Assembly (NCBI GenBank): GCA_001782045.1
Contig: MFNK01000003.1
Coordinates: forward strand, 204,719 to 268,718
Length of the DNA: 64,000 nucleotides
Direction of reading: 5' to 3'
Source: Candidatus Levybacteria bacterium RIFCSPHIGHO2_01_FULL_36_15b
Lineage (GTDB): Bacteria > Patescibacteriota > Microgenomatia > Levybacterales > UBA12049
Part shown: positions 40,630-63,980 of the stretch, one piece after another
How positions within the stretch are numbered: the stretch's first letter is position 1
Layout: each line of letters starts with the position of its first letter
The notes under the pieces: generated by a model
Database searches by the model: none
What the model was told of the DNA's origin: nothing
What the model saw: only the letters and a program-made list of their open reading frames with translations
Made by a program: the position numbers and the translations under genes

Positions 40630-40645
40630 ACTATTAATTATACCC

Positions 40646-45884: not shown

Positions 45885-46421
45885 TCAAAAAGAGGAAATA
45901 ACTTCTTTCGCTTTTAGCTTTCTTTCCAAAATACTTTCTATAAATCTATGCGTATTAAAATCTAAATCTTGCTCTATACTTGAAAATCCAAGAAGCTTTA
46001 AGAGACTTATTTCAAAATGATTTACTACAATTTTTGGATCTTTCCCCTTTTCAATATCCAAAAGAGTAGTTTTTAAAAGTTCAAAAATCTGCTGACTTTC
46101 CTGATTTTCAGCGCACAAACTATCCACTAATTCACAAATATGATATGCATATCCTATTTTTTTAAGGTCTTTTTTTAAAATACTAAAGTTTGAAAGCGTC
46201 TCGACTTCCGAAAGAGTAAACATAGATTTTCCTTTATATATACTGAATTTGGAATAATTTAAAAGTTCTATGTGTGGAGATCTGCGGCTGGTAATTTTAC
46301 GCACGCCTTTTGCCATTAAGCTTATTTTTCCGTAGTGCTTTGAAAAAACAGTAATTATTCTGTCTGCTTCAGCAAGGCTTTTTCTTTTTAGTACAATACC
46401 TTCGGTTTTGTGCGCTCTCAT
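45885..46421 (-). CDS. recO: DNA repair protein RecO (short form)
   Basis: TEGIVLKRKSLAEADRIITVFSKHYGKISLMAKGVRK matches the RecO N-terminal OB-fold consensus (EGIVL..R.FGE.DRIL..FT...GK....AKGARS). 178 aa. Confidence 0.75.
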   Translation of the reverse strand: MRAHKTEGIVLKRKSLAEADRIITVFSKHYGKISLMAKGVRKITSRRSPHIELLNYSKFSIYKGKSMFTLSEVETLSNFSILKKDLKKIGYAYHICELVDSLCAENQESQQIFELLKTTLLDIEKGKDPKIVVNHFEISLLKLLGFSSIEQDLDFNTHRFIESILERKLKAKEVISSF

Positions 46422-48430: not shown

Positions 48431-49084
48431 CTAATTTAGGGTTACATGAATTCTCGATTGCGTTATGTTTGCAGGAAAATTTAGTTGAGTCTTCATTTGA
48501 ACTTGGTATGTTTTTTTCCCATTATCATAAATTAGCGCGTCCGAGACGACATAAGAAGACGCACCATTTGCCGAGACTTCACTGTTCCAAACGGGATGAT
48601 TATCGGTTTTATTATAAAGCCTAATCCATATTATTTGATTCCCCGTTGGAATTTGCGTAGATACTTCAAACCTTACTTCCTTAATGTTTACATAATTACC
48701 TAAATCAAAAGATACCTGTAGGCCTTCTACATCAGCCCAGTCAGACGAGCTGTTCGTTCCGGAACCAAAGGAAATAAAGTAATCCTTAATATTGTTTTTA
48801 CTTGTTTCATAATTAGATATATTTGAACTTTCTTCGACAAAAGGAGTAGGAGAATTAGTAGGAGAGTTAATAGGAGAAGGTGAAGGATTTGAGGTTTTTT
48901 CGCTTATTATAGCTTGGGGCTTAAGTATGAATGAATAAATTACTGCAAGATTTGTAACAATTATTATTGCGCATACAGCGATAATAAAAAAGGCATTTCT
49001 TACTCTTTTCTCGTCGAGCTTTATTCTTTGTTCGTCTTTCTCAAGTTCTCTTTCAAGATTTTCTACTTCTTTTGATTCATCCAT
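48431..49084 (-). CDS. Hypothetical bitopic membrane protein: cytoplasmic coiled-coil, one TM helix, Ser/Pro linker, beta-rich outer domain
   Basis: 217 aa. EVENLERELEKDEQRIKLDEKR, TM AFFIIAVCAIIIVTNLAVIYSFIL, SPSPINSPTNSPTP linker. Confidence 0.4.
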   Translation of the reverse strand: MDESKEVENLERELEKDEQRIKLDEKRVRNAFFIIAVCAIIIVTNLAVIYSFILKPQAIISEKTSNPSPSPINSPTNSPTPFVEESSNISNYETSKNNIKDYFISFGSGTNSSSDWADVEGLQVSFDLGNYVNIKEVRFEVSTQIPTGNQIIWIRLYNKTDNHPVWNSEVSANGASSYVVSDALIYDNGKKTYQVQMKTQLNFPANITQSRIHVTLN

Positions 49085-49088
49085 TATC

Positions 49089-49745
49089 TTAGAGCGCGCC
49101 TTTACCCGAAATCATAGCCCAGGGAGTTTTTAAAATAATCCACAAGTCATAAATAATTGAGCGTTTCTTTACGTACATTGCATCCATCTCTATTCTTTTA
49201 TCAAAATTTATTTCAGACCTTCCTGAAACCTGCCAATAACCAGTAACTCCCGGTTTAACCGACAAAACTACTTTTACTGCCCCTTTAGTATGGGGATATT
49301 GTTTTTGCTGTTCTTCCAGTTCGTCAGGGTAATAAGCCCTGGGCCCAACTAGGCTCATCTCTCCTCTTAGAATATTAAAAAACTGCGGAACTTCATCTAA
49401 AGAATGTTTTCTAATAAAATGCCCTACTCTTGTTACTCTTGGATCATCTTTAAGTTTGTAACTTCCTCTTTTATATTCATAAAAAAGTTTTGAATACTCT
49501 GGGTTTTTACGAAGTAGTCTATGTGCATTTTCCACCATACTTCTGAACTTATACATTTTAAACAATTTTCCGCCTCTTCCTACTCTTTTTGGAGTATCAG
49601 CCAAAACAGGACCCTTCGAATCCAATTTTATTAAAACTGCAAGTAGAATTATTAATGGAGAAAATAATATTATGAGGATTAAAGAGAAAATAATATCTAC
49701 CATTCTTTTAATTTTTTCGTAAAACCCGTTCTTGTGCGATTCCAT
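49089..49745 (-). CDS. Polyprenyl-phosphate hexose-1-phosphate transferase (small PglC/WbaP-C-type bacterial sugar transferase); initiating enzyme
   Basis: N-terminal TM hairpin, then KGPVLADTPKRVGRGGKLFKMYKFRSM, EVPQFFNILRGEMSLVGPRA, KPGVTGYWQVSGRS: PF02397 signature. Confidence 0.85.
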   Translation of the reverse strand: MESHKNGFYEKIKRMVDIIFSLILIILFSPLIILLAVLIKLDSKGPVLADTPKRVGRGGKLFKMYKFRSMVENAHRLLRKNPEYSKLFYEYKRGSYKLKDDPRVTRVGHFIRKHSLDEVPQFFNILRGEMSLVGPRAYYPDELEEQQKQYPHTKGAVKVVLSVKPGVTGYWQVSGRSEINFDKRIEMDAMYVKKRSIIYDLWIILKTPWAMISGKGAL

Positions 49746-49748
49746 AAA

Positions 49749-50831
49749 TTAAGTTAAATCCTCGTATTCGGTCCCAGATAAGCTCTCTACGAATTTTTTT
49801 ATTTGAGGTACTGAATCCTTAGGGCAAACCAGTAAAACATCGTCTGTATTAATAATTATAACCTTAGACAAGTCTAATCCTACAACAAGCTGATCGGTAT
49901 AGTTAAATACCAGATTATCGCTGCTTCCTTCAAGCATTACCTTTCCTTTAGTTACATTTTCATGAATTGATATTTGTAAAGCTTCTTTTAATGCTTCCCA
50001 AGCGCCAACATCGCTCCATCCCAAATCGGCTGCAATTACAAATACCTTATCTGTATCTATTTTTTCCAAAATAGCACTATCAAAACTGATTGTTTCAAAC
50101 TCGGGATATGTTTTTTGCATAATTTTCTCATAACTATTGGTTTTATAAGATTTTTGAATATCCATTATTCCTTCCCAAATTTTAGGGGCAAACTTTTCAT
50201 ACTGGGATAAAACAAACTGAGGCGTAGTTACAAAATAACCAGGATTCCATGCATAATTTTGGTTTTCTAAAAATTTTTGTGCCTCCTCAAGTGATGGTCT
50301 GTATATTAATTTTTTAAACTTAAAAATTTTTGTGCCTCTTACGCTATCTATCTCATCTCCAAACTCAATCCATCCCAAATTCTGATTTGCAAATCTTGCT
50401 CTTTGCCCTATAAAAATTAACGAGCTGGGATTACTGGAAACTAATTTTTCAGCAAATAAGAGAACCTCTCTAAATCTTCTTTCTTTCTTAACAAAATGGT
50501 CGCTCCAAATAATCGCAACTGGTTCGTTCGGATTCTCTTTTCCGACAATTCCCATTGCGACTCCAACAGCGGGGCCTACGTCTCTCATTTCCGGCTCAAG
50601 AATAAAATTATCAGAAGGAATTTGAGGAAGGTGCGATCGTACTATATTTTCATACTTCTTACCTGTAGATACATAAATATCTTCGTATTTAAATTCTGGC
50701 TGCAGTCTTTCTACTGCTAGTTGAAGAGTTGATTTATCACCAACGATTTTTTCAAATTGTTTGGGAGTATTTTTTCGCGATAATGGCCAAAGTCGAGTTC
50801 CCACCCCTCCGGCAAAAATAACTACTTTCAT
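49749..50831 (-). CDS. manC: Mannose-1-phosphate guanylyltransferase-like NDP-sugar pyrophosphorylase
   Basis: VIFAGGVGTRLWPLSRKNTPKQF matches the ManC/GMP consensus (ILAGGSGTRLWPLSR..PKQF). 360 aa, no cupin/PMI domain. Confidence 0.75.
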   Translation of the reverse strand: MKVVIFAGGVGTRLWPLSRKNTPKQFEKIVGDKSTLQLAVERLQPEFKYEDIYVSTGKKYENIVRSHLPQIPSDNFILEPEMRDVGPAVGVAMGIVGKENPNEPVAIIWSDHFVKKERRFREVLLFAEKLVSSNPSSLIFIGQRARFANQNLGWIEFGDEIDSVRGTKIFKFKKLIYRPSLEEAQKFLENQNYAWNPGYFVTTPQFVLSQYEKFAPKIWEGIMDIQKSYKTNSYEKIMQKTYPEFETISFDSAILEKIDTDKVFVIAADLGWSDVGAWEALKEALQISIHENVTKGKVMLEGSSDNLVFNYTDQLVVGLDLSKVIIINTDDVLLVCPKDSVPQIKKFVESLSGTEYEDLT

Positions 50832-51895
50832 ACTTTGTTTCTTTCTATAAAATCCAACAAATTTTTCTTAAATTCTTTATGCGAAAATCTTAATGAATTT
50901 TCAATACAAGCTTCTCTATTATATCTATTAGCTTTAAAATTTTCCAACACATTCTCAAGTTCGGGTTCGCTGCCAAAAAATTCCCCGGTTTTTCCCTCTT
51001 TAACTATATCCAAAGCCCCTCCTGCTTTATAAGCAATAACGGGTTTTCCAAAGTATTGTGCCTCTACCATTGCAAGCCCAAAATCCTCAGTAGTAGGAAA
51101 AATAAAAGCACGGCAGTTTAGGTAATAACCGTAAAGCTCCTCTTCTGATAAATTTTTTATAAATTCAATATTGCTGCCCGCTTTCCGTTTTAGCTTACCT
51201 TCTTCCCACCCTGTCCCGATTATTTTCAGCGGCAACTTTAATTTATTAAAAACTGAAATTGCCATGTCAATTCTTTTGTAAGCAACAAGTCTTGATATTA
51301 TAAGAAAATAATTTTGCTCGGCTGGAAGTTTTGGCTTAACATCGGAAATAGAAAGAGGTGGGAAAATTACACTTGAGTTTTGCCCATAATAATTTTTAAT
51401 CCTTTTTTTTACTTCGTTTGATATAGCTATATAATAATCCGGTCTTTGAGAAGCAATTTTATCCCACAGCCTAAGGTAGGAAACTACTGGTTTAGAAAAA
51501 AGCTTAAACAGCCTACCTTTAAAATAAACATTGTAACCGCTCCATAAATATCTAGTTGGAGTTAAGCAATAACATATATGCAAAGTTTTAGGCTTTGTAA
51601 TTATTCCTTTTGCAGATTCACTGGTCACAGAAATAACCAAATCGTAATTTTCAAAGTTAAAACCCTCAAACGCAATTGGCATAAGGGTGGCTAAAAACTC
51701 ATGCCTTGAAGAAGCTCCGGGAATTTTTTGCAAAAAAGAGGTTTTTATATTAAATTTTTTTGCCCAAGGTGCTTTTTCTTTGTTATAAACTGAAGTAAAA
51801 AGATCTGCTTTAGGAAATATTTTATTTAGAGAAAGAAGCACTCTTTCTGCTCCTCCCCATTTATTAACTCTATCGTAAACCAATGCTACTTTCAT
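50828..51895 (-). CDS. GT4 family glycosyltransferase
   Basis: MKVALVYDRVNKWGGAERVL N-terminus. TTEDFGLAMVEAQYFGKPVIAYKAGGALDIV C-terminal motif. Confidence 0.8.
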   Translation of the reverse strand: MKVALVYDRVNKWGGAERVLLSLNKIFPKADLFTSVYNKEKAPWAKKFNIKTSFLQKIPGASSRHEFLATLMPIAFEGFNFENYDLVISVTSESAKGIITKPKTLHICYCLTPTRYLWSGYNVYFKGRLFKLFSKPVVSYLRLWDKIASQRPDYYIAISNEVKKRIKNYYGQNSSVIFPPLSISDVKPKLPAEQNYFLIISRLVAYKRIDMAISVFNKLKLPLKIIGTGWEEGKLKRKAGSNIEFIKNLSEEELYGYYLNCRAFIFPTTEDFGLAMVEAQYFGKPVIAYKAGGALDIVKEGKTGEFFGSEPELENVLENFKANRYNREACIENSLRFSHKEFKKNLLDFIERNKV

Positions 51896-53002
51896 TTATG
51901 CTGAGTTTGCTGAAGTATAAGCTTTCAGTGTTTCCTTAGCCATTTTTTCCCAAGAAAACTTTCTTACTACTAAGAATCCTTTTTCTTTTAAATCTTTACG
52001 AGTTTTTAAATCATTTAAAATTAATTTTAAAATTAACGTTAAATCCTTTGGCTTTTTAGGATCAAAGTAAATAGCAGAATCTTTACAAATTTCTCTATGT
52101 ACGGGAATGTCTGAAAGAATTAATGGAGAACCCGCAGCCATTGCCTCAACCGCGGTTAAAGAAAATCCTTCCATAAAGGAAGGCACAATTGTTGCCACTG
52201 AATTTTTGTATAAGCTATAAAGTTTTTTATCATCCGGATTTTCAATAAATACAACGTTTTTTCCAAGATTTAACTGTTCAACTTTTTCTATAACTCTTTT
52301 ATAAAAAAAATCTTTCCTGCCTACAAGAGCAAGCTTAACCTGCGGATAATCTTTAACAAATTCCCTAAAAGCGAGCAGTAAAATGTCGACATTTTTATGG
52401 GGGTAAAAATTTCCTACCCTTAAAAAATATTTTCCTTTAAAAGGGAATTCAGTATTCGCTTCGTACTCAAATCCACCTTCGTATGTAATGATAATTTTCT
52501 CTTTCTTAACCCAATGGTAGTTTTCTAAAATATTACTTTTTACTGTTTCTGATGGAACAATTATTTTTTTTGCATTTTTTAAAACGTTTGAAAGAATAAA
52601 CCTGTATCCAACTCTTTTTATCCAGTATAGAAAAATAGGCAAAGTGGATGCTTTACCCGTGTTAAATTTATTAACTATTAAATCGTGAATAGTCACTATG
52701 TATGGTTTTTTGTAAAAATATGGAACGCTAAAATACGGAAAATGCATTAAATCAAGGTTCTCTTTATTAATAATCTGCGGAAAATTAATTTGCTCTTCTA
52801 GGCTATGCCAGGGGATATCACAATTTGAAATTTTAAATTTTGAATTTGAAATTTGCAATTTAACGTCTTCATAATCCTCTGATCTAACAAACAATACATA
52901 ATTATTCTTTTTATCAAGCATTTGAAGATTAATAATCAAATTCCTAGTGTACCTACCAACTCCTGTTTGGTTCCAAAGGCGGCAGTCTATTCCAATAAGC
53001 AT
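51896..53002 (-). CDS. GT4 family glycosyltransferase
   Basis: PSFMEGFSLTAVEAMAAGSPLILSDIPVHREI motif. GT-B two-domain length (368 aa). Confidence 0.8.
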   Translation of the reverse strand: MLIGIDCRLWNQTGVGRYTRNLIINLQMLDKKNNYVLFVRSEDYEDVKLQISNSKFKISNCDIPWHSLEEQINFPQIINKENLDLMHFPYFSVPYFYKKPYIVTIHDLIVNKFNTGKASTLPIFLYWIKRVGYRFILSNVLKNAKKIIVPSETVKSNILENYHWVKKEKIIITYEGGFEYEANTEFPFKGKYFLRVGNFYPHKNVDILLLAFREFVKDYPQVKLALVGRKDFFYKRVIEKVEQLNLGKNVVFIENPDDKKLYSLYKNSVATIVPSFMEGFSLTAVEAMAAGSPLILSDIPVHREICKDSAIYFDPKKPKDLTLILKLILNDLKTRKDLKEKGFLVVRKFSWEKMAKETLKAYTSANSA

Positions 53003-53032
53003 GATGTTAATTATAGCCTAAAGTGCGCTTTG

Positions 53033-54244
53033 TTATAAAGAAGACATATAAACCTTTTCTAGCTTTACGGAAATTTTCTCCCAATCATAATTTTCTTCAA
53101 CAAAGTTTCTTGCATTATGAGTAAGCTTTCGATAAAGACTTGAATCAGTCAAAAGATTAACCACACAATTTGCTAAATCAATTGAACTTTCAGAAGCTAA
53201 AACGTGCGTACCGTTTTTTGCAGATAATCCCTCTATTCCTAAACTTGTCGTTACTACTCCGACTCCGCTTGACATAGCTTCAAGAATTTTATAACTCGTT
53301 CCCCCGCCAGCTCTTAGGGGAGCCAAAAGCAAATAGGAACGCCTGAAAATTTCAGGCGTTTCAAGTTTTTGATTTTTTTCAAATATAATATCTTTCGACT
53401 CGTATTTTTTAAGGTTATCGGGAATATTCTTTCCTACTACCCAAAGCTTTAAATCTATTTTTTTATTAAGCTCTGAAAGCTCTTTTATCACTCTTGGCCA
53501 AATTTCCTTTAAAATAAACTCCAGGGCATCTCTATTTTGCAACCATCTAAAGTCTCCTATAAAAAGAACCTTTCTTTCGTTTCCTATTTTTTCAAAATTT
53601 CTGAATGTGAATTTTTTTGTGTCTACTCCGTTTGGCACTAGTACAACATCTCTTCTTTTCATTAACCTTTTTTCTACCTCCGAAACGGCGATAAGCTTAT
53701 CTACCTTTTTCCATGCAGCTTCCTCTTTTCTTTTAATCTTAACAACATCTATATATAAAAACGGCCTTACAAAGGACAAGCTCAAGTCTGAATATTTTTT
53801 GTAAACAAGATATTCTATATTATGCTCTGCCAGAACAACCGGAAGAAAAGTTTTGGGAATATTCTGCAGCACATAGAAAGTCTCAACGTGTATTAAGTCA
53901 AAACTTGTCTTTACCAATTCATCTCTTATTAAGCTTTTCATTTCTTCGCTTTTGTGCCCTGTTAGAAGAAAAGGGTCAGATGAAAAGCCTGTTTTTAAAA
54001 TATTAGAAACACTCCATTGTTTTTTCCTCCTTACTGTTATAACTTTCGTACAGATTTTTTTTATTTCATCCACGTCTTCCTCTGTTTGATAATCCCTTTT
54101 TTCGCAAATTAAGGTTATATTATGTCTATTGGATAGATTTTTTATCAAATTATAAAGCCTGATGTGTCCACCAGACGTAAGCGGATAAGGCAAAAATGAC
54201 GAAACCATTAATATTTTCATCCCGTTAGAAAACTCTCCTTTCAA
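53033..54244 (-). CDS. GT4 family glycosyltransferase
   Basis: FLPYPLTSGGHIR N-terminal motif, GGGTSYKILEAMSSGVGVVTTSLGIEG C-terminal motif. Confidence 0.8.
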   Translation of the reverse strand: MKGEFSNGMKILMVSSFLPYPLTSGGHIRLYNLIKNLSNRHNITLICEKRDYQTEEDVDEIKKICTKVITVRRKKQWSVSNILKTGFSSDPFLLTGHKSEEMKSLIRDELVKTSFDLIHVETFYVLQNIPKTFLPVVLAEHNIEYLVYKKYSDLSLSFVRPFLYIDVVKIKRKEEAAWKKVDKLIAVSEVEKRLMKRRDVVLVPNGVDTKKFTFRNFEKIGNERKVLFIGDFRWLQNRDALEFILKEIWPRVIKELSELNKKIDLKLWVVGKNIPDNLKKYESKDIIFEKNQKLETPEIFRRSYLLLAPLRAGGGTSYKILEAMSSGVGVVTTSLGIEGLSAKNGTHVLASESSIDLANCVVNLLTDSSLYRKLTHNARNFVEENYDWEKISVKLEKVYMSSL

Positions 54245-54298
54245 ACATGTTCCATGGAGTTGTAAAATTATATTTTAATTGCATTTTTCTAACGGGAT

Positions 54299-55732
54299 TC
54301 ATTCTAGTTTAAAAATGACATACTGACTTGTCTTTTCAATTATTTGATAAGTGTTTCCAAGACCCAAATCAACAGGCGTAGGATTAGCAAGAACTAAATA
54401 ATCTGCCCCCATTTTTACCATTTCTGGTATAGATTTTTCAAAACTTGCCCAACCCTTTCTTTTTGTCTGATATAGAAAGGTTGTATCTCCATTATAAATC
54501 GCGATAATTTTTGCGTCCTTAGGAGTTAGCCTATCAACGGCTGCACCGGCCGCAATAATTGATGGATTATTAATATTGAAATAATCTTTTACCTGATTCC
54601 ATCCTAAAACAAAAAGTGAAATAAGGCTTAAAACTAAAATGGCTTTACCTACTTCAAGACTTTTATACTTGTATCTATATAAAAATATCGCGCCAAGTGC
54701 AAAGAAAATCGAGACTGTGGGCATAATAAGGATTTGGTAATAGTCGTGTTGCACATTTCCTGTTGCAAACACAGTAACATATAAAAGAGAACTTACTCCA
54801 AAAGTCGCGATAAAAAGCCTGTCTTTATATTGTTTTAAATTTAGTATTCCTGAAATTAAAATAATTACTCCAAAATATCCACTAATCAAAGCCGTTAGCC
54901 TTTCATAAAAAATCCAACGAAAAAATGAAGGCCTAAATCTTATTCCATTACCATTTAAAAGCCATCCACTCGCAGGTATCCCTGCAGGAAAATTTTGTAT
55001 CCAAAGTCTCCAAAAAAGTAAGGGCAAAAGACTTACTAATGCATAAAACCAAAGCCTCCAGTTTTTAAATACTGAGTTGCCAAATTTTTCATACGCAAGA
55101 TAAACAATGGGTAAGACAAAAAATAAAGCGTAGGGTTTTAAAAGCAGGGCAGATATCATAAACAGCAGCGAGATAACAAAATAAATTACCTGCTTAGATT
55201 TTTCTCCAAGCCAAAGCTGAAAAAAATACGTTGCACCTGTAACTGCCATAATCATCATAGAATCCGGCAAGATTGCCCGGCTATAAAAAATATTGTATGG
55301 AATAAATAGGTAGAAAAAGGCGGAAACAATCCCTAGTATATTTTGTTTGCGATATGAAAAAATTAAATACAAAAATACTGCGGAACAAAGAGAGGAAAAA
55401 ATAGAAACCAGTCTTCCCCATTCTTCTAGGGTAAATACTCCTACTAAATTATAAAGTGCAGCATGGAAAAAATTATAAAGAGGAAACTCTACAAATCGAT
55501 AACCCTCTGGATTGTCATAAATACCTGATGGTACGTTTGAAAGATCGTCAAACTTTGGATAAAGTAAATTAATTCCGTTGTTTACAAAGTTTCGTGATAC
55601 TGCAGAAGTATCAGCTTGACGCCAACTGTGCCAATCCGCAACTGGTCCGTCAAATCGATAAAGACGTGCTAAAAAACCGCAACAAAGTAAAACTGCTAAT
55701 ATAAAAATTTCAATCTTCTTTCCTAATGTCAT
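54299..55732 (-). CDS. GT-C-like polytopic membrane glycosyltransferase candidate
   Basis: 477 aa, about 11 TM helices, first loop HSWRQADTSAVSRNF (Asp-containing loop motif), no soluble domain. 4-nt overlap with the upstream gene. Confidence 0.55.
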   Translation of the reverse strand: MTLGKKIEIFILAVLLCCGFLARLYRFDGPVADWHSWRQADTSAVSRNFVNNGINLLYPKFDDLSNVPSGIYDNPEGYRFVEFPLYNFFHAALYNLVGVFTLEEWGRLVSIFSSLCSAVFLYLIFSYRKQNILGIVSAFFYLFIPYNIFYSRAILPDSMMIMAVTGATYFFQLWLGEKSKQVIYFVISLLFMISALLLKPYALFFVLPIVYLAYEKFGNSVFKNWRLWFYALVSLLPLLFWRLWIQNFPAGIPASGWLLNGNGIRFRPSFFRWIFYERLTALISGYFGVIILISGILNLKQYKDRLFIATFGVSSLLYVTVFATGNVQHDYYQILIMPTVSIFFALGAIFLYRYKYKSLEVGKAILVLSLISLFVLGWNQVKDYFNINNPSIIAAGAAVDRLTPKDAKIIAIYNGDTTFLYQTKRKGWASFEKSIPEMVKMGADYLVLANPTPVDLGLGNTYQIIEKTSQYVIFKLE

Positions 55733-58700
55733 TTATTAACTTTTGGTTGGTTTCTAGTGGTTACTTCGGTAAGGCTTCCGTCGCTGTTGAATACAAATAT
55801 CTTGTCTGTTCTTGAACTCCCTACTGCCTGCAAAGCATCATTTAGATTGGTATCCTTGTATATTTTTACGCTATCGTTTTTAACTGCAAACCATACTGCG
55901 TCATCAAGCCCAACCGGGAAAACCCAGGCTTGTCCCCACTTTATCGGAACATTTAAGAAGTGGAAGCTTAAATCTTTATTTGACCAATAATCGCTGTAAT
56001 ATGAATCAAAGGATATAAAGAAGTTCTTAACTTTGGTAGATGAACCATGCCAATCGGCAGCGCTTTGTTGAAATGAAATTATGTGAAAGAAACCATAAAT
56101 TAACAAAAGTACGGCCATTGCAGCAATGGCTACATTTCTTCCGCTTTCTAAAAGAAACTCATATATTTTTTTAAACACTACAACCAAGACAAAAATCACT
56201 CCTATTGTAGAAAGATAGCTATATCTTGAAGTTATATTTCCAAGTCCCAAGTACGGAAGAAGTGAAATAATAAAGAAAGACGCTCCAAAAAATAAAATTC
56301 TTTTATCTATTTGATCAAGAATATTTTTTCCCTTTTTATAAATAAGAGTAATAATTGCAATTCCTATAAAAACTAAACCTCCCGATAAAACCATATTTTC
56401 CCTAAGTAAAATTCTTAAATTTTCATATATGCCTATTGTCGCTTGTCCTAAAATAGCAATAGAAATATACCCCAAAATATTTCCTACAAAATTGAATGGA
56501 AGCTTAACTAAATCATAGTTATAATCTCCGGAAAACCAATGACTATTGGAAAAAAGCCGTAAAACAAAATATAAAACAACTGGAATAAAAAGAATTACAA
56601 AGTCACGTTGTTTGATTTCTGCCATTACTGTATTTAAGTTTGTGTCCTTAAGTCTGTATGCCAACACCAAAAGAGGAAGAACCACGCCTAACTCATGAAA
56701 TAAAAGAGTAAGTGTAAATGAGGCAAACGCTAAAATATAATAATAAACTTTTTTTGTTTCATCCCATTTAATAAAAAGAAGTAAGCCTAAAAGTGCAAAG
56801 ACTGCGGTAAAAAGATGTCCCGTTGCCGCAATCCAAAAAATTATTTCGGAGTAGCCGCTTAATATAAGAAACAGGAATGCGCAGAAAGCGGATAAAAGAG
56901 TACTTTTAAAAACTCTTTTTGCAACAAGGAAAAACAAAACTGAAACAATAAAATGGAGAACTATAGAAACTAAATGATAAACAGCCGGATTTAGCCAAAA
57001 AGTGTTATACATAAAATCGAAGTAAATTTTTGTTCCCGGCCTAAAGAAAAAGCCTCCCGAATCTGTAAAGTAAGTTAACAAATTAGATGGCGCCTTAGCA
57101 GCCCACTTTAGCCAAGTAAAATCATCTCCTGCAAAAAAATTATTTATTAGTGGAGAATATAAAACAATACTAAGTCCAAGAAGATAAATTACAATTGCAT
57201 ATGTAGAAACTGCTGCTTTTTTTAGTTCATCAAATAGATTAATTTCTGATTTTAAATTTAAAACAATTATTCCAAGCGCTATACCCATTAAGATCCATAA
57301 TGTATAAGCAATTTTAGACGCCTCAAAAACGTCTATTAAAAATGCGTTTAAGCCAAGCCCAACCAGTCCTGCCCCAAATCCAAGAAGAAAATTTTTTTCA
57401 ATACCGTAATCTAAACTCTTCCACACCTTTTTAAGATAAATAAAGAAAGAGAAAAATATTGAAAGAAAAGCAATAAATCCTAAAAGGCCTATCTCGCCCA
57501 ATATTCGCAAATAATTATTGTCTACTGCCAAAGTTACCGAACTGTAACCGCTTCCTATTAATATTTGTCTTTGAAAAGCCTCTATCGCCCTTGGCCATTC
57601 TCCTTGAAACCTTGTGGTAAAAGATAAATCGTAAGCAGCAGCTCTTTTAATAATAAAATTTCCATGTAAAACTAAAAATTGGGCCGATGGAGAAGATTTT
57701 ACATCCGGCGGAAACTCATAGAAAAAATTTCCAACTCTTTTTATAACAGGAGAAAGCGCAAGGTTAATGTAGCCTGTTCCTGAAGGTAAGTTTTCACCCG
57801 TTGATAAGTTTACCGCTTTTACCAATGTAACCTCATTTGGAATAAACTTATACGGAAAAATTGCAGAAGGTGAAGAATTTTTTTCTCCCGCTAAAGCGTT
57901 AACAAGTTCTTCCTGATCTTTTACTCGCTGCGATAAAACAATTTTGTCTTGGAAAAATTCTTTTGAAACAAATTTTACATGACCAATGGAGTTTCCTGTA
58001 TTTGCATCTACCAATACATCTACCGTATCTACAGTATTTTGGAATCTCTGCAAAATAGTTGGTTTTAACGCCAAGAAAAGAAGTGCTCCGATTATAATAA
58101 CGGGTACGGAATATAAGACTAATTTTCTCTTTTGAAAGAAAAAAACTATAAATAAGGACACAAAAACCACCACAAACGAGACCCTAGAAACTGTCATAAA
58201 TAGTAACCAGAAAGAAAGCAAGGTTGTAAAAAGAATAATACCCTTAACGAGAAAATTCTTGATTACAAAAAATAAACTGACCAGTATTGGAATCATTAAG
58301 ACTAAATAAGCGGCTAAATCGTAGTGCCCGGCAAAAGTTGACGGAACGCGCGAAAGCTCGGAAAGCTGTATCGGTATCCCCTTTGCAAACTCTTCGTTGC
58401 TTGTTAAAAATGCAGGAAAACCAAAATACTTTTGTCCAAACCCATAAAAAATAATTGCAAGAAGAGTAATAAGTATGGTGCCAATAACAAAGTACAAAAG
58501 TTTCCTGTCTTTCATTCCCTGATAGGCAACAAAAAATAAGCTCAAATATTCAACATGCCTAACTAAGGCAAGAAATGCTACATTTGGAAATGTATTTGCA
58601 AGTGTAGGAAATATTAAAAGTACACCGTGAATTGTTGCAACAGCACCTACTATCCAGAATATTAGAATAGGAAAGGTCAAAGGAGTACGTAACGTAATTT

Positions 58701-58893
58701 TTTTGCGCACAAGTAAAGCTAGCCAGGAAAGAAGCACGCCAAGAACCAAAAAATCTTCTGCTCTTATATAAACCCAAGTATTATTAACATTTATTAAAGG
58801 AAGCTTTGGATAAAGAGGGATAAATGCAAGAAGCACTAACGTTTCAACAAATAATAAATTAGCTTTAACAAAGTTATAAATTTTTTTAATCAT
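55729..58893 (-). CDS. Fusion protein: Wzy_C (O-antigen ligase/PglL/PilO-type) domain plus C-terminal GT-C (PMT-like) domain
   Basis: Residues 1-560: polytopic, with a large outer loop ending GSGYSSVTLAVDNNYLRILGEIGLLGF, which matches the Wzy_C signature G.G.......HN.YL....E.G..G. Residues 560-1054: a second polytopic module with loop NFFAGDDFTWLKWA (acidic-pair motif as in PMT/ArnT) and a C-terminal soluble domain. Confidence 0.65.
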   Translation of the reverse strand: MIKKIYNFVKANLLFVETLVLLAFIPLYPKLPLINVNNTWVYIRAEDFLVLGVLLSWLALLVRKKITLRTPLTFPILIFWIVGAVATIHGVLLIFPTLANTFPNVAFLALVRHVEYLSLFFVAYQGMKDRKLLYFVIGTILITLLAIIFYGFGQKYFGFPAFLTSNEEFAKGIPIQLSELSRVPSTFAGHYDLAAYLVLMIPILVSLFFVIKNFLVKGIILFTTLLSFWLLFMTVSRVSFVVVFVSLFIVFFFQKRKLVLYSVPVIIIGALLFLALKPTILQRFQNTVDTVDVLVDANTGNSIGHVKFVSKEFFQDKIVLSQRVKDQEELVNALAGEKNSSPSAIFPYKFIPNEVTLVKAVNLSTGENLPSGTGYINLALSPVIKRVGNFFYEFPPDVKSSPSAQFLVLHGNFIIKRAAAYDLSFTTRFQGEWPRAIEAFQRQILIGSGYSSVTLAVDNNYLRILGEIGLLGFIAFLSIFFSFFIYLKKVWKSLDYGIEKNFLLGFGAGLVGLGLNAFLIDVFEASKIAYTLWILMGIALGIIVLNLKSEINLFDELKKAAVSTYAIVIYLLGLSIVLYSPLINNFFAGDDFTWLKWAAKAPSNLLTYFTDSGGFFFRPGTKIYFDFMYNTFWLNPAVYHLVSIVLHFIVSVLFFLVAKRVFKSTLLSAFCAFLFLILSGYSEIIFWIAATGHLFTAVFALLGLLLFIKWDETKKVYYYILAFASFTLTLLFHELGVVLPLLVLAYRLKDTNLNTVMAEIKQRDFVILFIPVVLYFVLRLFSNSHWFSGDYNYDLVKLPFNFVGNILGYISIAILGQATIGIYENLRILLRENMVLSGGLVFIGIAIITLIYKKGKNILDQIDKRILFFGASFFIISLLPYLGLGNITSRYSYLSTIGVIFVLVVVFKKIYEFLLESGRNVAIAAMAVLLLIYGFFHIISFQQSAADWHGSSTKVKNFFISFDSYYSDYWSNKDLSFHFLNVPIKWGQAWVFPVGLDDAVWFAVKNDSVKIYKDTNLNDALQAVGSSRTDKIFVFNSDGSLTEVTTRNQPKVNK

Positions 58894-58897
58894 CTAT

Positions 58898-59461
58898 TTA
58901 TCTAAACCATGCAGCTCTTCCAAGTTTGTAGTTTGGATTTTTATTTTGTCTTTCCCCTATTTCCTTTGCTGGAACTCCTCCAACAATCTTAAACTCATCT
59001 ACATCCTTTGTTACTACAGCACCTGCTCCAACAACTGCTCCTTTCTTAATTGTTACCCCGGGTAGAATAATGGCTCGTGGTCCAATAAATACGTAATCAT
59101 CTATATTAACAGGTCCAAGGACTGCTTTTTCCACGTCTGCAAAATCTTCTTCGGACAAATTATGTTGTGAATTGTAAATCATAACTTCCGATGCTATGTC
59201 TACGTGATCTCCTATGTTTAAAGAAGCGCGGCCGTCCAAAACTGCATTTTCTCCAACAATCGTATCTTTTCCTATTCTAATATTGGGTGGGTAATAAAAA
59301 TTAGCCCACATATGAATAGTAGAGCCCGTGCCGATTTTAATTCCACAAAGTCGGTAAAAAAATCTTCGAAGATGATGAGAAGGAATGTGCCCAACCCATC
59401 TGAGCTTCATCACGATAATCTCCCAAAAAACCGTTTTTAATCTCCTGTAAATTCTATTCAT
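58898..59461 (-). CDS. Left-handed beta-helix (hexapeptide repeat) acetyltransferase, WcaF/MAT-like
   Basis: IGKDTIVGENAVLDG...IGDHVDIASEVMIY...DDYVFIGPRAIILPGVTIKKGAVVGAGAVVTKDV hexapeptide repeats. 187 aa. Confidence 0.8.
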   Translation of the reverse strand: MNRIYRRLKTVFWEIIVMKLRWVGHIPSHHLRRFFYRLCGIKIGTGSTIHMWANFYYPPNIRIGKDTIVGENAVLDGRASLNIGDHVDIASEVMIYNSQHNLSEEDFADVEKAVLGPVNIDDYVFIGPRAIILPGVTIKKGAVVGAGAVVTKDVDEFKIVGGVPAKEIGERQNKNPNYKLGRAAWFR

Positions 59462-60564
59462 TTCAAACTTTCTAAAACCCTAAGAGTCTCTTTGGCTGTC
59501 TTTTCCCAGGAAAACTTTTTAACTTGTGCCTTACCCTTTTCTATCATCGCATTTCGCAATTTATCATCAGTTAAAACTCTTTTTATTTGTCTTGCTATAT
59601 CCTCGGAGTCTGTAGGATCAAAATACAAAGCGGCATCTCCGCCTGCTTCAGGCAGAGAAGAAACGTTACTAATAAGCACCGGACAGCCGTATTTCATCGC
59701 CTCCAAAACCGGTAGTCCAAATCCTTCATAAAGACTAGGAAGCACAAAGCAAGCTGCATTTTTGTATAAAGATGGCAAATCATCATCTTCCACAAAATCT
59801 AAAAACTTCACTCTGTCTTCCACGCCATACCTTTTAGGAGATCTAAGAATATCTTCATACTGCCAACCTTTTTTACCTACAATAACCAAGGAAAGATCGC
59901 TTTTTGAAAGCATAGAAAAAGCCTCTACTAGTCTTTCTATGTTTTTTCTTGGCTGGAGAGTTCCCACAAAAAGAATATAATTCCCTTTTACACCAAACTT
60001 CTTTGATAAATCTTCCATACTCAATACCTTATTCTTTATACCTGATACTTGTTTTATTCCCGGATATGTTACGTGAACGTTATTTTCGTCCACACTGTAT
60101 GTTTTGATTATATCATCCTTGCTGGAAGTACTAATAGTAAAGATAGCCTTAGCTTTTGCAACAGAATATTTAGTCCAGTTGGTAAGTTGATACAAATCCT
60201 TTTTCAAAAAAAGCTCCGGGTAAAATATATAGGATATATCCATTATGGAAATAGTAGTTGGTATTGGAGAGAATCTTGGAGCGTAATGCGTTGGAGTAAA
60301 AAATATATCAGGTTTTCTATATAAGTATAAATTTATTGGAAGAGCAAATTGGGTCCATAATTTTTTAGGGCCTACAATATTATATGAAAAGTTAGACGTT
60401 GGAGTCGGCATGTGATGTTTTGGCGTTTCTTTAAGATAAATAATAAATCTTGCGCTTTGGGTTTTTAATTTTTGAAACTCATTAATAATTTCAAACGCGT
60501 ATTCTCCAATCCCAACTCTTCTATCTACATTTGCTTCATTCCCGTCAATTCCAATATTTATCAT
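59458..60564 (-). CDS. GT4 family glycosyltransferase
   Basis: PSLYEGFGLPVLEAMKYGCPVLISNVSSLPEAGGDAALYF motif. 368 aa. Confidence 0.8.
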   Translation of the reverse strand: MINIGIDGNEANVDRRVGIGEYAFEIINEFQKLKTQSARFIIYLKETPKHHMPTPTSNFSYNIVGPKKLWTQFALPINLYLYRKPDIFFTPTHYAPRFSPIPTTISIMDISYIFYPELFLKKDLYQLTNWTKYSVAKAKAIFTISTSSKDDIIKTYSVDENNVHVTYPGIKQVSGIKNKVLSMEDLSKKFGVKGNYILFVGTLQPRKNIERLVEAFSMLSKSDLSLVIVGKKGWQYEDILRSPKRYGVEDRVKFLDFVEDDDLPSLYKNAACFVLPSLYEGFGLPVLEAMKYGCPVLISNVSSLPEAGGDAALYFDPTDSEDIARQIKRVLTDDKLRNAMIEKGKAQVKKFSWEKTAKETLRVLESLK

Positions 60565-60597
60565 TTTACCTCTTCATAAATTTTAGCAGAAATAACA

Positions 60598-62472
60598 TTA
60601 TTTAACTTGTGTGGGATCAATATTAAAAATATAAATTAACCAACCAAAACATAGGATTAGTAGAATAAGTAAGAAGGGATTTTTCAACCCTATAGGCAGT
60701 CTTTTATACACCAGATACAAAACAACTCCTAATAAAAAATGGACTAATGGATATATTAAGAAACTTATTAAAAGATTATTCCATATTTTACCGAAATTAA
60801 ATTTTAAAAGAGACGCTGCTTGATAAGCGAGGAAGTCTTGATTTATGAAATATAGCGATGTTTTAGAAATACTTACTCCCAAAAACCTAAGTGCATCCAA
60901 GCTTAATCCAAAATAATATCTGTCTCCAAGTTGAATGTAGCGAGGAAGGGTAAGAATAAAATCAAGACCGAAACTCAGTGGCACAAAAAGAAGCATTTTT
61001 TTATTAAACTTTTTACTTATAAAGTAAAAAATGGATAAACTCAATAATATACATAGAGACTTAAACAATAATAAATTGTCTACAACGGGGCCGTAGAAAA
61101 CTAACCAGCTGAACTGAATATGAGATCTCATTAAAAGTCCGAAGCTTGCAAAGATGAAAAGAAAAGCAATAAACCAGATACCAAGTTTTTTCAACTTTTT
61201 AAAAATAATTAATGAAAAAAATATTATTAACAGAATAATTTGATCTGAGTAATTTTCTTTATTGGTAGATGTATTTGAGGACAAAGCTCTGTTTAGAAAG
61301 CTTTGATTATCTTCAATAAAATAATCTGCAAAGGATTTGTTTAACTCATATTTAATTCTGTCTCTCAAATATGCATTTTCTCTTACTTTTGTACTTAATA
61401 ACCATGTAGATAATTCATCTGCCAGTGTGATTTTTTCAGGAAACTTAGGGTAGACCTTTTGAAAAGTTTCGGCAAAATCTTGCATGGTAACAAATTCTAA
61501 GTTTGGGTATTTTGAGAGATTTTCTAGTTGATTTTTGTATTCTTCCAAGTAATCTACACTTTCGCTTCCTGTTTCTAAACCAACCGTCACCTGCCCTAGC
61601 TGGTTATGACAATCTAGGTAAACCTTAATTAAGTCATTAAAATAATTCGTATTCTCTCCTTGCTTAATATAATCATTAGCCTGAAGAGAGTAATTAGAGA
61701 ACTCTGGCCCTTGCCCATGTGCCTTTGTTAAATCCCTTTGGGCCCATTGAATTATTACAACATTTTGTTTATTTTCTAAATTGCTTGCTGGAGTGAGAAT
61801 ATTAGCCTTGGAAGGATAAAATGGTACCCCCCACCATTGTCCCCAAACTCCATAACTATCGGTTGTTTTTTGGTCTGCAAGTATTAAGGCCGAAGTTATA
61901 CTAAATTTTTCGACCATGTAATTTAAAGAAAAAGAGTCTATCCACCAAGCACCTACCGATTTAGGATAATAGCTGTTTTGATTTTTAAATTTCTCAAAAA
62001 GCGTATCTATCAATTTTATTCTTTCAGATTGTGTGTAACCTGATAAAAAAGCTGCATTAGGAAAAAACCAAGGAGTGTTTACGGGATAAATTACTCTTGC
62101 ATCACTGGCCAGCTGTGGAGAGATTTCTAACAACAGACCTTTTTCTTGCTTTGGGTTAAGCCCTTTTATTTGTTCCATTAGTTTTTTATCGGAGAAAACA
62201 TCGTATTGCAAAAGCCAAGTAGCAGGAAACCCTCTTTGTTTAATAGATGAGTATTGGTTTATTAAGGGATTTAGACTTTTATCAAGCCACAATGACCTTG
62301 ATCTAACTGGATTTACTAGTGTTACAAATCTATTGTTGCAACTTATACTACTTTCGTATGCCAGGGCAGAGGTGATATTTAAAAGATAAAACAAGAATCC
62401 TAAAAGAAATACCAAAAATGTTAAAAGGAGGCTCTGTTTAATGTTAATAGTGTTTAAAAAGCTTTTCATCAA
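60598..62472 (-). CDS. Hypothetical membrane protein: N-terminal TM, roughly 380-aa extracytoplasmic domain, C-terminal 6-7 TM bundle
   Basis: 624 aa. The track start is TTG; the ATG at 62469 is more likely. No family recognised by eye (no NodB or GH motifs found). Confidence 0.4.
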   Translation of the reverse strand: MMKSFLNTINIKQSLLLTFLVFLLGFLFYLLNITSALAYESSISCNNRFVTLVNPVRSRSLWLDKSLNPLINQYSSIKQRGFPATWLLQYDVFSDKKLMEQIKGLNPKQEKGLLLEISPQLASDARVIYPVNTPWFFPNAAFLSGYTQSERIKLIDTLFEKFKNQNSYYPKSVGAWWIDSFSLNYMVEKFSITSALILADQKTTDSYGVWGQWWGVPFYPSKANILTPASNLENKQNVVIIQWAQRDLTKAHGQGPEFSNYSLQANDYIKQGENTNYFNDLIKVYLDCHNQLGQVTVGLETGSESVDYLEEYKNQLENLSKYPNLEFVTMQDFAETFQKVYPKFPEKITLADELSTWLLSTKVRENAYLRDRIKYELNKSFADYFIEDNQSFLNRALSSNTSTNKENYSDQIILLIIFFSLIIFKKLKKLGIWFIAFLFIFASFGLLMRSHIQFSWLVFYGPVVDNLLLFKSLCILLSLSIFYFISKKFNKKMLLFVPLSFGLDFILTLPRYIQLGDRYYFGLSLDALRFLGVSISKTSLYFINQDFLAYQAASLLKFNFGKIWNNLLISFLIYPLVHFLLGVVLYLVYKRLPIGLKNPFLLILLILCFGWLIYIFNIDPTQVK

Positions 62473-62478
62473 TTCTAA

Positions 62479-63048
62479 TCATATTCCTGCTCCTATCACT
62501 TCAAGTCTTTCTTGCGGAATTCCTAAAATCTCTGTAGCATCTTTTTTTGTCGACTGCGAAATACAAAGAATTTTAGAAGTTTCTTTTTTAACCCATTCGA
62601 GCTTTCTTTTTTGAGAAGCTACAATGTTTGGTGAGATTATAAATTTGAGAGGATTAAATTCTGTTTCCTGATGAGTCTCCTCTGGATATTTGTAAACTAT
62701 TAAATCATAAAGAATTGTTGCTTTTTTTGCTTTTTTTACAGGTGGTTCTGTCCAATCGGAGGTTATAAAAATATCAACATCTCCGATAAAATTTTCAATT
62801 GGCATAATATGCAGTCTATTCCATAGTAAATCTAAAATAGTCGGAGGAATCCTAAACTGTTTTATTAAAACATTATTAGATTTAAGATTTAAGATTTCAG
62901 ATTTAAGATTCTTTCTTAGCGAAGAGTAAAATAGAATATATTTATTCTGCTCATCAAGCTTAAGCAACTCTTCGATTAATGAGCTAAGATAATTTGCCAC
63001 TCCAGTATTTTCAAAAGCAAGCTGTGAGATATCTATTCCAATTCTCAT
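62479..63048 (-). CDS. GT4 N-terminal (Glyco_trans_4-like) domain only; truncated glycosyltransferase or gene remnant
   Basis: 189 aa. MRIGIDISQLAFENTGVANY start, typical of the GT4 N-domain. The ORF stops where the C-terminal Glycos_transf_1 domain would begin. The next gene, 6 nt downstream, is an unrelated membrane protein. Confidence 0.55.
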   Translation of the reverse strand: MRIGIDISQLAFENTGVANYLSSLIEELLKLDEQNKYILFYSSLRKNLKSEILNLKSNNVLIKQFRIPPTILDLLWNRLHIMPIENFIGDVDIFITSDWTEPPVKKAKKATILYDLIVYKYPEETHQETEFNPLKFIISPNIVASQKRKLEWVKKETSKILCISQSTKKDATEILGIPQERLEVIGAGI

Positions 63049-63980
63049 TCTGTGGAATATTTCAACTCCTCAACCATTCTGTTGCCTTCGTTTTTCACTG
63101 CGATACTAAGTATCATATCAGCAATAAGACCAGTAAAAAGTATTTGTAAACCAACCAATACTAAAAGAACGCCAAAGGTCAGTAAAGGCCTTGTTCCAAT
63201 TGATTCGCCTAATATTTTAACAATCAGCAAGTAAAAAAGGATAAAAAATCCTATTGCAGATAAAACTCCTCCTGCAAATCCAAAGAAGTGCAAAGGTCGT
63301 TTAGCGTATTTTGTTAAAAACAAAATTGTAAACATATCGGGAATATCTTTAAACACCTTAGAAAAGCCATATTTTGATTTTCCAAATTTTCTTGGCTCAT
63401 GCACTACGGCAAGCTCAGTTACCTCAAAGCCCTTTTCTGAAACAAGAAGAGGAATAAATCTGTGCATTCCTCCGTATAGGTTAAGTACTTTTGCAGCTTC
63501 TTTGGTGTAAAGCTTAAGTCCGCAGTTATAATCGTGTAAATGAACTCCCCAAAAAGCCGACATAACAAAATTAAAAAACTTAGAAGGGATTTTCATAATA
63601 ATTGAGTCTTTCCTGTTTTTCCTCCAACCGCAAACAAGCTCAAACCCTTCTTTTGACTTATTTAGCAGGTTTTGTATTTCTTCCGGCCTATCCTGTAAAT
63701 CTGCGTCTAAGGTAACTACATAGTCTCCTTTTGCACGCTGAAAACCATAAGTTAATGCTTCAGCCTTACCTTGATGCTTTCGGAAAGAAAATATTCTTAT
63801 AGATTTATCTTTTGCAGCCAGTTTTTTAAGTATATCGAGTGTCGAATCCGAAGAACCATCGTCCACAAATATGATCTCATAACCCATTTTAAGGCTCTCA
63901 AGGGCGCTCTTAAGCCTAGGATATAGCTTTTCAAGGCTTTCTTCCTCGTTGTAAACAGGAACAAGTGCGGTAATTAACAT
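63045..63980 (-). CDS. GtrB/ArnC/DPM1-like GT2 polyprenyl-phosphate glycosyltransferase with C-terminal TM hairpin
   Basis: ALVPVYNEEESL, IFVDDGSSDST, TLDADLQDRPEEI, then two C-terminal TM helices. 311 aa. 4-nt start overlap (ATGA). Confidence 0.8.
   Translation of the reverse strand: MLITALVPVYNEEESLEKLYPRLKSALESLKMGYEIIFVDDGSSDSTLDILKKLAAKDKSIRIFSFRKHQGKAEALTYGFQRAKGDYVVTLDADLQDRPEEIQNLLNKSKEGFELVCGWRKNRKDSIIMKIPSKFFNFVMSAFWGVHLHDYNCGLKLYTKEAAKVLNLYGGMHRFIPLLVSEKGFEVTELAVVHEPRKFGKSKYGFSKVFKDIPDMFTILFLTKYAKRPLHFFGFAGGVLSAIGFFILFYLLIVKILGESIGTRPLLTFGVLLVLVGLQILFTGLIADMILSIAVKNEGNRMVEELKYSTE

Follow-up and report, generated by a model that had tools for sequence, protein, structure and literature searches.

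A conserved Microgenomates gene cluster for a proposed envelope heteroglycan, centred on a WaaL-like/GT-C fusion protein

A cluster of glycan assembly genes lies at positions 49089-63980 of a 64,000-nucleotide stretch (hereafter the window) of contig MFNK01000003.1 from Candidatus Levybacteria bacterium RIFCSPHIGHO2_01_FULL_36_15b, a metagenome-assembled genome of Rifle groundwater origin. This region is fully occupied by 12 open reading frames (ORFs), all on the minus strand, with ends that match its limits exactly. An initial annotation, made from the sequence without database searches, had read the region as an operon of about 15 kb for an undecaprenyl-pyrophosphate (Und-PP)-linked glycan, and the 12 ORFs and the domains named there were all found again in the ORF list and in Pfam and NCBIfam scans. 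The most unusual product is a protein of 1054 amino acids (aa) in which a WaaL/Wzy_C-like domain is joined to a glycosyltransferase (GT) of the GT-C type. The features are listed below in the direction of transcription, with two further co-directional genes and a distant flippase candidate; GT2 and GT4 denote GT families, TM stands for transmembrane and PGT for phosphoglycosyltransferase.

63045..63980, minus strand: GT2 polyprenyl-phosphate sugar synthase, GtrB/ArnC/PgfS-like (PF00535, 116 bits)
62479..63048, minus strand: stand-alone GT4 N-terminal (acceptor-side) Rossmann domain, 189 aa (by hhalign)
60598..62472, minus strand: membrane-anchored DUF3863/CE4-deacetylase/GH57-like (beta/alpha) barrel with a C-terminal polytopic domain, 624 aa
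59458..60564, minus strand: GT4a (PF00534, 145 bits)
58898..59461, minus strand: left-handed beta-helix (LbH) sugar O-acetyltransferase, WcaF-like (Hexapep, 49 bits; WcaF family, 103 bits)
57214..58893, minus strand: WaaL/Wzy_C-like GT-C_B domain, N-half (aa 1-560) of the 1054-aa protein
55729..57213, minus strand: GT-C_A glycosyltransferase, C-half (aa 561-1054) of the 1054-aa protein
54299..55732, minus strand: separate GT-C_A glycosyltransferase (PMT_2), 477 aa (PMT_2, 29.9 bits; cutoff 26.1)
53033..54244, minus strand: GT4b (Glyco_trans_1_4, 67.5 bits; Glyco_transf_4, 46.9 bits), kept in 71/80 of the related loci described below
51896..53002, minus strand: GT4c (PF00534, 110.8 bits), kept in 63/80 loci
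50828..51895, minus strand: GT4d (PF00534, 88 bits), kept in 58/80 loci
49749..50831, minus strand: ManC, mannose-1-phosphate guanylyltransferase without a phosphomannose isomerase domain (NTP_transferase, 93.5 bits, plus ManC_GMP_beta-helix)
49089..49745, minus strand: small monotopic polyprenyl-phosphate PGT of PglC-like architecture, 218 aa (PF02397 Bac_transf, 212 bits)
48431..49084, minus strand: accessory protein of 217 aa with one TM helix, a linker rich in Ser and Pro, and a beta-rich domain at the C-terminus
46421..48388, minus strand: DUF4012 protein with an N-terminal TM helix and an extracytoplasmic domain of about 590 aa (PF13196, 81 bits)
5842..7059, minus strand: Wzx-like MOP flippase, the window's only flippase candidate, 42 kb away (Polysacc_synt_3, E=2.7e-66)

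The 12 ORFs are closely packed, with junctions of -4, 6, 33, -4, 4, -4, 54, 30, 0, -4 and 3 bp, and the GC content of the gene cluster (0.32-0.36) is the same as in the remaining window. The run on one strand is longer than the 15 kb first proposed. It continues beyond 49089 through the genes for the 217-aa TM protein and DUF4012 to 46421, and it also passes the window end on the upstream side in two public contigs (L003 and L004), which show identity to the window across 13.4 kb and reach 8.5 kb beyond its end. Promoter- and terminator-like sites occur at about the frequency expected from shuffled sequences (72 versus 66 and 17 versus 13.6, respectively), leaving the limits of the operon undefined by sequence signals. 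The best sigma-70-like match of the region (48396-48425, TTGACA-18-TATCAT, 11/12) lies in the 42-bp gap 5' of the DUF4012 start, and on this match the DUF4012 gene may have its own promoter. In addition, a hairpin at 53336-53362, GGAACGCCTGAAAATTTCAGGCGTTTC, has a terminator-like score on both strands and is located within the GT4b coding sequence; its stem of 12 bp includes 6 G-C pairs and closes a loop of 3 nt.

A scan of GTDB species representatives detected a relative of the fusion protein in 475 genomes, from which 80 loci were kept, belonging to Levy-, Roizman-, Gottesman- and Woesebacteria together with records titled "uncultured Gammaproteobacteria"; ORFs were assigned by BLAST. One gene order is near-universal in these loci: GT4 N-half, GT4a, LbH, fusion, 477-aa GT-C, GT4b, GT4c, GT4d, ManC, PGT, DUF4012 and RecO. 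Agreement on the next gene along this order runs from 61/61 (the GT4 N-half gene adjoining GT4a) and 68/68 (LbH directly after GT4a, which is kept in 68/80 loci) through 71/76, 73/73 (the 477-aa GT-C next after the fusion), 70/70, 63/64, 54/57, 54/54 and 47/47 to 42/44 (DUF4012 next after the PGT). The return of an identical order in 80 independent species-level genomes is not a chance arrangement, and the core proteins are 46-63% identical across the four lineages. In most loci, two additional genes (products of about 290 aa) interrupt this order, the first separating LbH from the fusion and the second separating GT4b from GT4c; both are missing here, and in one locus (L002) they are annotated as GT2. 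The cluster is a vertically inherited, class-wide module that reaches to DUF4012, unlike a variable O-antigen-like locus, a feature that the initial annotation had not captured. Its native composition and its site beside recO and the dcw (division and cell wall) cluster argue for a housekeeping envelope function and, taken with the fixed synteny across the class, for a structural envelope glycan over a variable capsule.

The opposite explanation, that this is an ordinary Wzx/Wzy-type capsule or exopolysaccharide (EPS) locus which varies between strains and has no particular conserved function, would suit the generic content of the cluster, as a PGT, GT4s, an acetyltransferase and a Wzy_C-family protein are found in many EPS loci, and the accessory GT2s and the 624-aa gene do differ between lineages. 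The PGT-DUF4012 adjacency is shared with an EPS locus as well: in Bifidobacterium longum 105-A, the order is cpsD-DUF4012-wzz, with the DUF4012 gene immediately after the priming PGT (PMC5412050). However, wzz and the large, WbaP-type form of the PGT are found in Bifidobacterium and are both missing from the Microgenomates locus. The conservation of core order and content across four lineages at the identity given above is unlike that of hypervariable capsule loci, the cluster is without Wzz/CpsCD and Wzx, and the locus is fixed beside recO and dcw with native composition. A variable capsule or EPS locus is therefore considered very improbable.

Many of the contigs carrying the Patescibacteria-type cluster (among L005-L084) are titled "uncultured Gammaproteobacteria bacterium", for example, the 936-kb CAZFRF010000001.1. 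Judged by their genes and the synteny, these records are genomes of the Candidate Phyla Radiation (CPR) under a wrong title.

Three genes of the run differ in how widely they are shared. The DUF4012 gene is part of the conserved order, and an enrichment of the DUF4012 domain in the CPR and in Gram-positive bacteria had been noted before (PMC6744442). The gene for the 217-aa protein, right 3' of the PGT, has an ORF at the equivalent position in few loci only (L017, L015, L045). Family scans gave no match for this protein (a Wzz match of 13.8 bits was judged to be noise); its linker reads SNPSPSPINSPTNSPTP, and it is possible that the protein is a glycosylation target or an accessory protein. 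The 624-aa gene is missing from this site, which is an insertion hot spot, in 80/80 loci. It is a lineage-specific, deacetylase-like accessory insertion, which the initial annotation had listed as an unknown membrane protein. Its product is 100% identical to a database protein of Candidatus Levybacteria. One relative of this DUF3863-like protein (P0185, 1064 aa) carries a PMT_2 GT-C domain, a fusion that ties the deacetylase-like family to GT-C enzymes.

The domain scans bore out the parts list proposed earlier. The PGT has a Bac_transf domain, a single N-terminal helix (residues 21-39) and an Asp-Glu dyad, read from the sequence, in HSLDEVPQ, which places it with PglC rather than with WecA/MraY-type enzymes; the sole PF00953 protein of the window is MraY (33195-34208). 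ManC matches TIGR01479 with 229 bits over model positions 3-348 of 467, i.e. the guanylyltransferase (GMP) part only. The call of a "GT4 N-half" is upheld in spite of a weak Pfam score (23.5 bits), since in hhalign a profile built from orthologues of the 189-aa protein matched the N-terminal halves of two neighbouring GT4s, GT4c with a probability of 99.0% (E=6e-18) and GT4a with 98.3%. A pseudogene remnant was ruled out, as the separate gene is kept in all of the 61 loci counted above. The 4-bp start/stop overlap between LbH and GT4a is likewise conserved (median gap -4). Further, the GT2 has two C-terminal TM helices (239-257 and 269-287) and matches the NCBIfam models of ArnC (183 bits) and PgfS (140 bits) over its full length, which together identify it as a polyprenyl-phosphate sugar synthase; such a gene stands immediately 5' of the GT4 N-half in 34/80 loci. 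The 477-aa GT-C has about nine TM helices, and its gene shares a 4-bp overlap (translational coupling) with that of the fusion.

The 1054-aa protein belongs to a family of >1500 close homologues of 1045-1090 aa, nearly all from Patescibacteria, and with >100 independent full-length homologues an assembly or frameshift artefact is ruled out. A precomputed PF04932 (Wzy_C) hit is recorded for just 1 of the 120 closest homologues. A profile of the N-half, searched against 1.84 billion representatives, retrieved relatives at E<=1e-66 in 2249 clusters; some are fusions with a length of about 1000-1260 aa, and others are stand-alone proteins of only about 430-620 aa. Among 64 sampled N-domain relatives, 58 match Wzy_C in Pfam (E<=0.01; best 6.2e-15), and the stand-alone relatives P0287 and P0304 have precomputed PF04932 annotations. 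By transitive homology, these matches make the 1054-aa protein a member of the Wzy_C superfamily. Thus, the earlier Wzy_C call holds through the relatives, whereas the protein itself falls under the Pfam cutoff. Stand-alone WaaL-like genes likewise occur in a GT4-LbH-GT2 context with an orthologue of the 477-aa GT-C 0-2 bp after them, and this coupling implies that the pairing of a WaaL-like protein with a GT-C predates the fusion.

An AlphaFold model built with 35 homologues (pLDDT 77, pTM 0.78) shows 12 TM helices with a long loop at aa 277-468, followed by about 13 more TM helices and a small C-terminal alpha/beta domain. The N-half has the WaaL-type 12-TM GT-C_B fold with its large outside loop, and the C-half has a GT-C_A fold; together with the Wzy_C matches of the relatives, these folds make the proposed Wzy_C-GT-C fusion a real one. 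The outside loop at aa 277-468 includes a beta-rich insertion, and it bears two motifs, TTRFQGEWP and GSGYxSVxLAVD458NNYLRxLGExGxxG. The acidic motif characteristic of GT-C enzymes (DxD, DD or DE in the first extracytoplasmic loop) is represented by an invariant D590-D591 in GDDFTWLRW, right after TM13 in the first GT-C loop, which is predicted to be outside. The set of invariant Arg, Asp and Glu residues, including D590-D591, falls in predicted outside loops and is likely to form the active sites. The C-terminal domain of about 90 aa contains invariant W990, F992, P993, V994, G995 and W1001. No WWDYG or WWDxG motif is present in the GT-C half, which rules out an STT3-type oligosaccharyltransferase (STT3/PglB/AglB). 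This half gave no match in NCBIfam or Pfam, and its similarity to the 477-aa GT-C is marginal in both BLASTP and hhalign. Sequence searches of the PDB with the fusion profile, the 624-aa profile, DUF4012 and a broad A4 profile returned nothing meaningful. The literature yielded no prior account of a CPR O-antigen ligase, of Wzy_C with PMT_2 or of a Microgenomates wall polysaccharide, and the fused WaaL-like/GT-C_A enzyme appears not to have been described previously.

The activity of WaaL and PglL needs two Arg residues and one His residue, which are R215, R288 and H338 in Escherichia coli WaaL, with H349 as the His in Neisseria (PMC3643930), and the H324A variant of PglS is inactive (PMC12800693). 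When compared with E. coli WaaL (taken from MG1655, L085), the 1054-aa protein has D458-N-x9-G469-x-x-G472 where WaaL has H338-N-x9-G-x-x-G. The catalytic His of the H-[NSQ]-x9-G-x-x-[GTY] motif is absent from the fusion protein, and Asp takes this position in 88/89 relatives with a detectable motif. The Arg of the TxSR motif, aligned to R215, is retained. A global hhalign alignment of the family to E. coli WaaL was unsuccessful; the local one is weak (probability 22%) and serves as a check of register rather than a proof of homology, placing the register within one residue with no His in either. PglL_A (PF15864) and Wzy_C_2/PglL_B had no match in the protein (E<=10) or in 64 relatives (E<=0.01). 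On sequence grounds, the family is a distinct Asp-type clade in the Wzy_C superfamily, and neither a canonical WaaL or PglL nor an STT3-type oligosaccharyltransferase. The WaaL enzymes of Cupriavidus metallidurans (PDB 7TPG/7TPJ) and E. coli share with it the GT-C_B fold, the TxSR Arg and the xN-x9-G-x-x-G scaffold, but the fusion differs in the invariant Asp for H338, a beta-rich loop insertion of about 140 aa, the fused GT-C_A domain and a Wzy_C score below the Pfam cutoff. The earlier supposition that the organism lacks lipopolysaccharide (LPS) is supported, as it is a CPR bacterium without an outer membrane, and the acceptor must therefore differ from that of WaaL.

These residues also bear on general protein O-glycosylation, in which the WaaL-like domain would act as an O-oligosaccharyltransferase on S-layer, pilin or other surface proteins, with en bloc transfer as in PglL, PilO and the WsaB/WsfB enzymes that glycosylate Gram-positive S-layers, while single sugars would be attached, or put on as primers, by the PMT-like GT-C modules. 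PglL, PilO, PglS and the Gram-positive WsaB-type enzymes share the Wzy_C superfamily and the Und-PP-glycan donor logic with the fusion, and pgl loci likewise combine a small PGT with several cytoplasmic GTs. The PglC-like PGT, four to six cytoplasmic GTs, Wzy_C-family enzyme and lack of Wzz all agree with this explanation, and the conserved gene content suits a glycan of fixed, conserved size. In addition, a gene for a TM protein with a Ser/Pro linker directly follows the PGT here, and PglL genes frequently adjoin those of their targets (PMC3643930). However, that gene is present in few loci only, the fusion family has no demonstrated target protein, and the invariant Asp for the catalytic His, the missing PglL_A and Wzy_C_2 matches and a GT-C half without WWDYG all set it apart from known enzymes of this kind. 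The analogy to Neisseria/Campylobacter-type general glycosylation drawn in the initial annotation is correspondingly weak, and protein O-glycosylation is judged to be a live but unlikely alternative.

The other route considered at the outset, a Wzy-dependent polymer, is incomplete. Wzy polymerases of Wzx/Wzy O-antigen, capsule and enterobacterial common antigen systems have in common with the cluster their (transitive) Wzy_C membership and a PGT-primed GT set of the size of a repeat unit, but here there is no Wzz/PCP (polysaccharide co-polymerase) partner and no Wzx in the cluster, and the content of the locus is conserved rather than variable. Neither Wzz/PCP nor Wzx was found in 46421-63980 or within 10 kb in three Pfam-annotated loci (L001-L003). 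Wzz is absent among the scanned ORFs of the window (nearly all of those >=100 aa), and LCP (PF03816) had no match in these ORFs or in the upstream genes on L003; both negatives apply to the sequence covered, no search of the remaining genome having been made. The Wzx-like flippase at 5842..7059 was confirmed by its Polysacc_synt_3 match, and it lies outside the operon. It may serve this operon, and no BLAST homologue of it was found in the 80 loci.

The GT2 and the two or three GT-C modules suggest a second, extracytoplasmic arm fed by undecaprenyl-phosphate (Und-P)-linked sugar, which was not part of the initial annotation. Similar GT2s with C-terminal TM helices and ArnT/PMT-fold GT-Cs are known from the GtrA/GtrB/GtrV and ArnC/ArnD/ArnT systems and from the streptococcal and lactococcal wall-polysaccharide side-chain systems (PgfS), and the GT2 and GT-C components of the Gtr/Arn type are both present in the cluster. 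Unlike those systems, one GT-C is fused to a WaaL-like enzyme, and no GtrA- or ArnE/F-like flippase was found: the region has no small 4-TM GtrA/ArnEF-type ORF (ORFs >=80 aa, with just one spurious antisense ORF). The CE4-like domain also departs from the Arn system, as it is predicted outside the membrane here and is not conserved at the locus. The same enzymes can be read as the machinery of a membrane-anchored lipoglycan, similar to actinobacterial lipomannan (LM) and lipoarabinomannan (LAM) or to lipoteichoic-acid glycolipids, with the WaaL-like domain ligating an Und-PP-glycan to a glycolipid anchor, in the way that WaaL itself uses lipid A-core, and the GT-Cs extending it with polyprenyl-phosphate-mannose. 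The combination of ManC, GT4s of the PimA/B-like class, a GT2 and several GT-Cs does mirror LM/LAM logic, but LM/LAM synthesis uses no PGT primer, no genes for synthesis of an anchor were identified and the ligase His is missing, so that a lipoglycan is regarded as quite improbable.

The presence of a small PGT and a WaaL/Wzy_C-GT-C fusion in a CPR host without an outer membrane makes an Und-PP-linked pathway with an extracytoplasmic transfer step a sensible reading of the sequence. On balance, the cluster is probably the core assembly line of a conserved, mannose-containing, O-acetylated envelope heteroglycan of Microgenomates, with two arms that meet outside the membrane. We infer the enzymatic steps, the flippase, the choice of polymerase or ligase and the final acceptor as follows. 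On the cytoplasmic face, the monotopic PGT would load a sugar-phosphate onto undecaprenyl-phosphate, and the four GT4 enzymes, assisted by the stand-alone GT4 N-domain protein, would elongate it using GDP-mannose from ManC; two further GT2 enzymes would take part in most relatives. The glycan would be O-acetylated by the LbH enzyme, and the Und-PP-oligosaccharide flipped by a flippase encoded outside the cluster, for which the Wzx-like protein at 5842-7059 is the candidate in the window. In the second arm, the GtrB/ArnC-like GT2 would produce an Und-P-monosaccharide to be consumed outside by two GT-C enzymes, the GT-C_A half of the fusion and the adjacent 477-aa protein. The arms would meet at the WaaL-like N-domain, which most likely moves the Und-PP-glycan en bloc to a sugar hydroxyl, either on the next repeat (polymerisation) or on a primer sugar provided by GT-C modules. 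DUF4012 would be a conserved extracytoplasmic partner of the PGT, and in this genome the 624-aa DUF3863/CE4-like protein probably de-acylates or trims the product. Domain identities, folds, outward topology, synteny and the loss of the ligase His form the directly supported layer of this model.

Several points weigh against this heteroglycan pathway. The 1054-aa protein itself scores only 15.9 bits (E=0.012) with Pfam Wzy_C PF04932, below the cutoff of 31.7, and no sequence-level link was found between the N-half and a solved WaaL. The His-to-Asp mapping depends on the motif register and the weak local hhalign alignment (probability 22%), and the structural model (pLDDT 77) is itself predicted, several of its outside loops at low confidence. 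Export and anchoring are left unexplained, since neither the cluster nor the 10 kb screened in each of the three Pfam-annotated loci has a Wzx or GtrA-like flippase, Wzz/PCP, an LCP ligase or an ABC exporter, and the last three are also missing among the scanned ORFs of the window. Further, the GT4, GT2 and PGT sequences do not reveal sugar specificity. The transfer may be a polymerisation or a single ligation, and the final carrier may be peptidoglycan, a glycolipid or protein.

The individual parts are familiar and known pathway logic is left intact, while the arrangement and its conservation are new. A bolder proposal, speculative and rather doubtful, is that the fusion and its obligate GT-C neighbour constitute a new extracytoplasmic machine, in which a GT-C would place a primer sugar, drawn from Und-P-sugar, on an envelope acceptor (protein, peptidoglycan or glycolipid) and the WaaL-like domain, with Asp for the ligase His, would then ligate or polymerise the Und-PP-glycan onto it. 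The product would be a wall polymer that is common to the class, may be essential and needs neither LCP nor Wzz, and it would correspond in the CPR to teichoic acids or secondary cell-wall polymers.

Downstream of the glycan operon, beyond RecO and a class II aminoacyl-tRNA synthetase, the same strand carries a complete dcw cluster (27749-43938), which includes MraZ, MraW, a penicillin-binding protein, three Mur ligases, a MurA-like EPSP_synthase, MraY, FtsW, MurG, FtsA and FtsZ; a second SEDS protein is encoded at 19923-21005. A second glycan cluster (965-16748) has no PGT. It contains three fusions of a cytoplasmic GT2 with a PMT- or PMT_2-type GT-C (1720-3903, 8342-10600 and 10590-13253), along with the Wzx-like flippase at 5842-7059, a sugar C-methyltransferase (7138-8349), an S-adenosylmethionine-dependent methyltransferase, GT4s and a PTPS_related membrane protein (15027-16748). 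A further PMT/PMT_2-type GT-C of 553 aa is encoded at 26056-27717 on the plus strand, adjoined by a gene on the minus strand (24493-26010) for a 505-aa protein, for which family scans gave no match. At least seven GT-C modules are thereby encoded within 64 kb, an unusually high number.

Past the window end on the same strand, positions 1928-8399 of L003 encode a GT4 (396 aa), a membrane protein of 289 aa and two polytopic paralogues (726 and 692 aa). In both paralogues, about 10 TM helices are combined with a large domain on the outside and a TM anchor at the C-terminus, and a gene similar to that of the 726-aa protein is found upstream of the cluster in 34/80 loci. The 726- and 692-aa proteins have no Pfam match, and their homologues are unannotated, some being fused to CBM_4_9 or LysM. 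As candidates for a flippase or a GT-C, they gave a weak MmpA match (24-35 bits) and an hhalign probability of 29% to GT-C.

The CPR, or Patescibacteria, account for a large share of bacterial diversity, yet most are uncultured and their envelope chemistry is essentially unknown. A glycan operon beside the cell-division and wall cluster points to a conserved surface glycan, which could serve in host attachment, S-layer anchoring or phage recognition. The recurring PGT-DUF4012 pair opens a way to test what this widespread but functionally uncharacterised domain does. The fusion without the canonical His represents a natural experiment on catalysis in GT-C_B ligases and polymerases, and a fused WaaL-like/GT-C enzyme may provide a new tool for glycoengineering.

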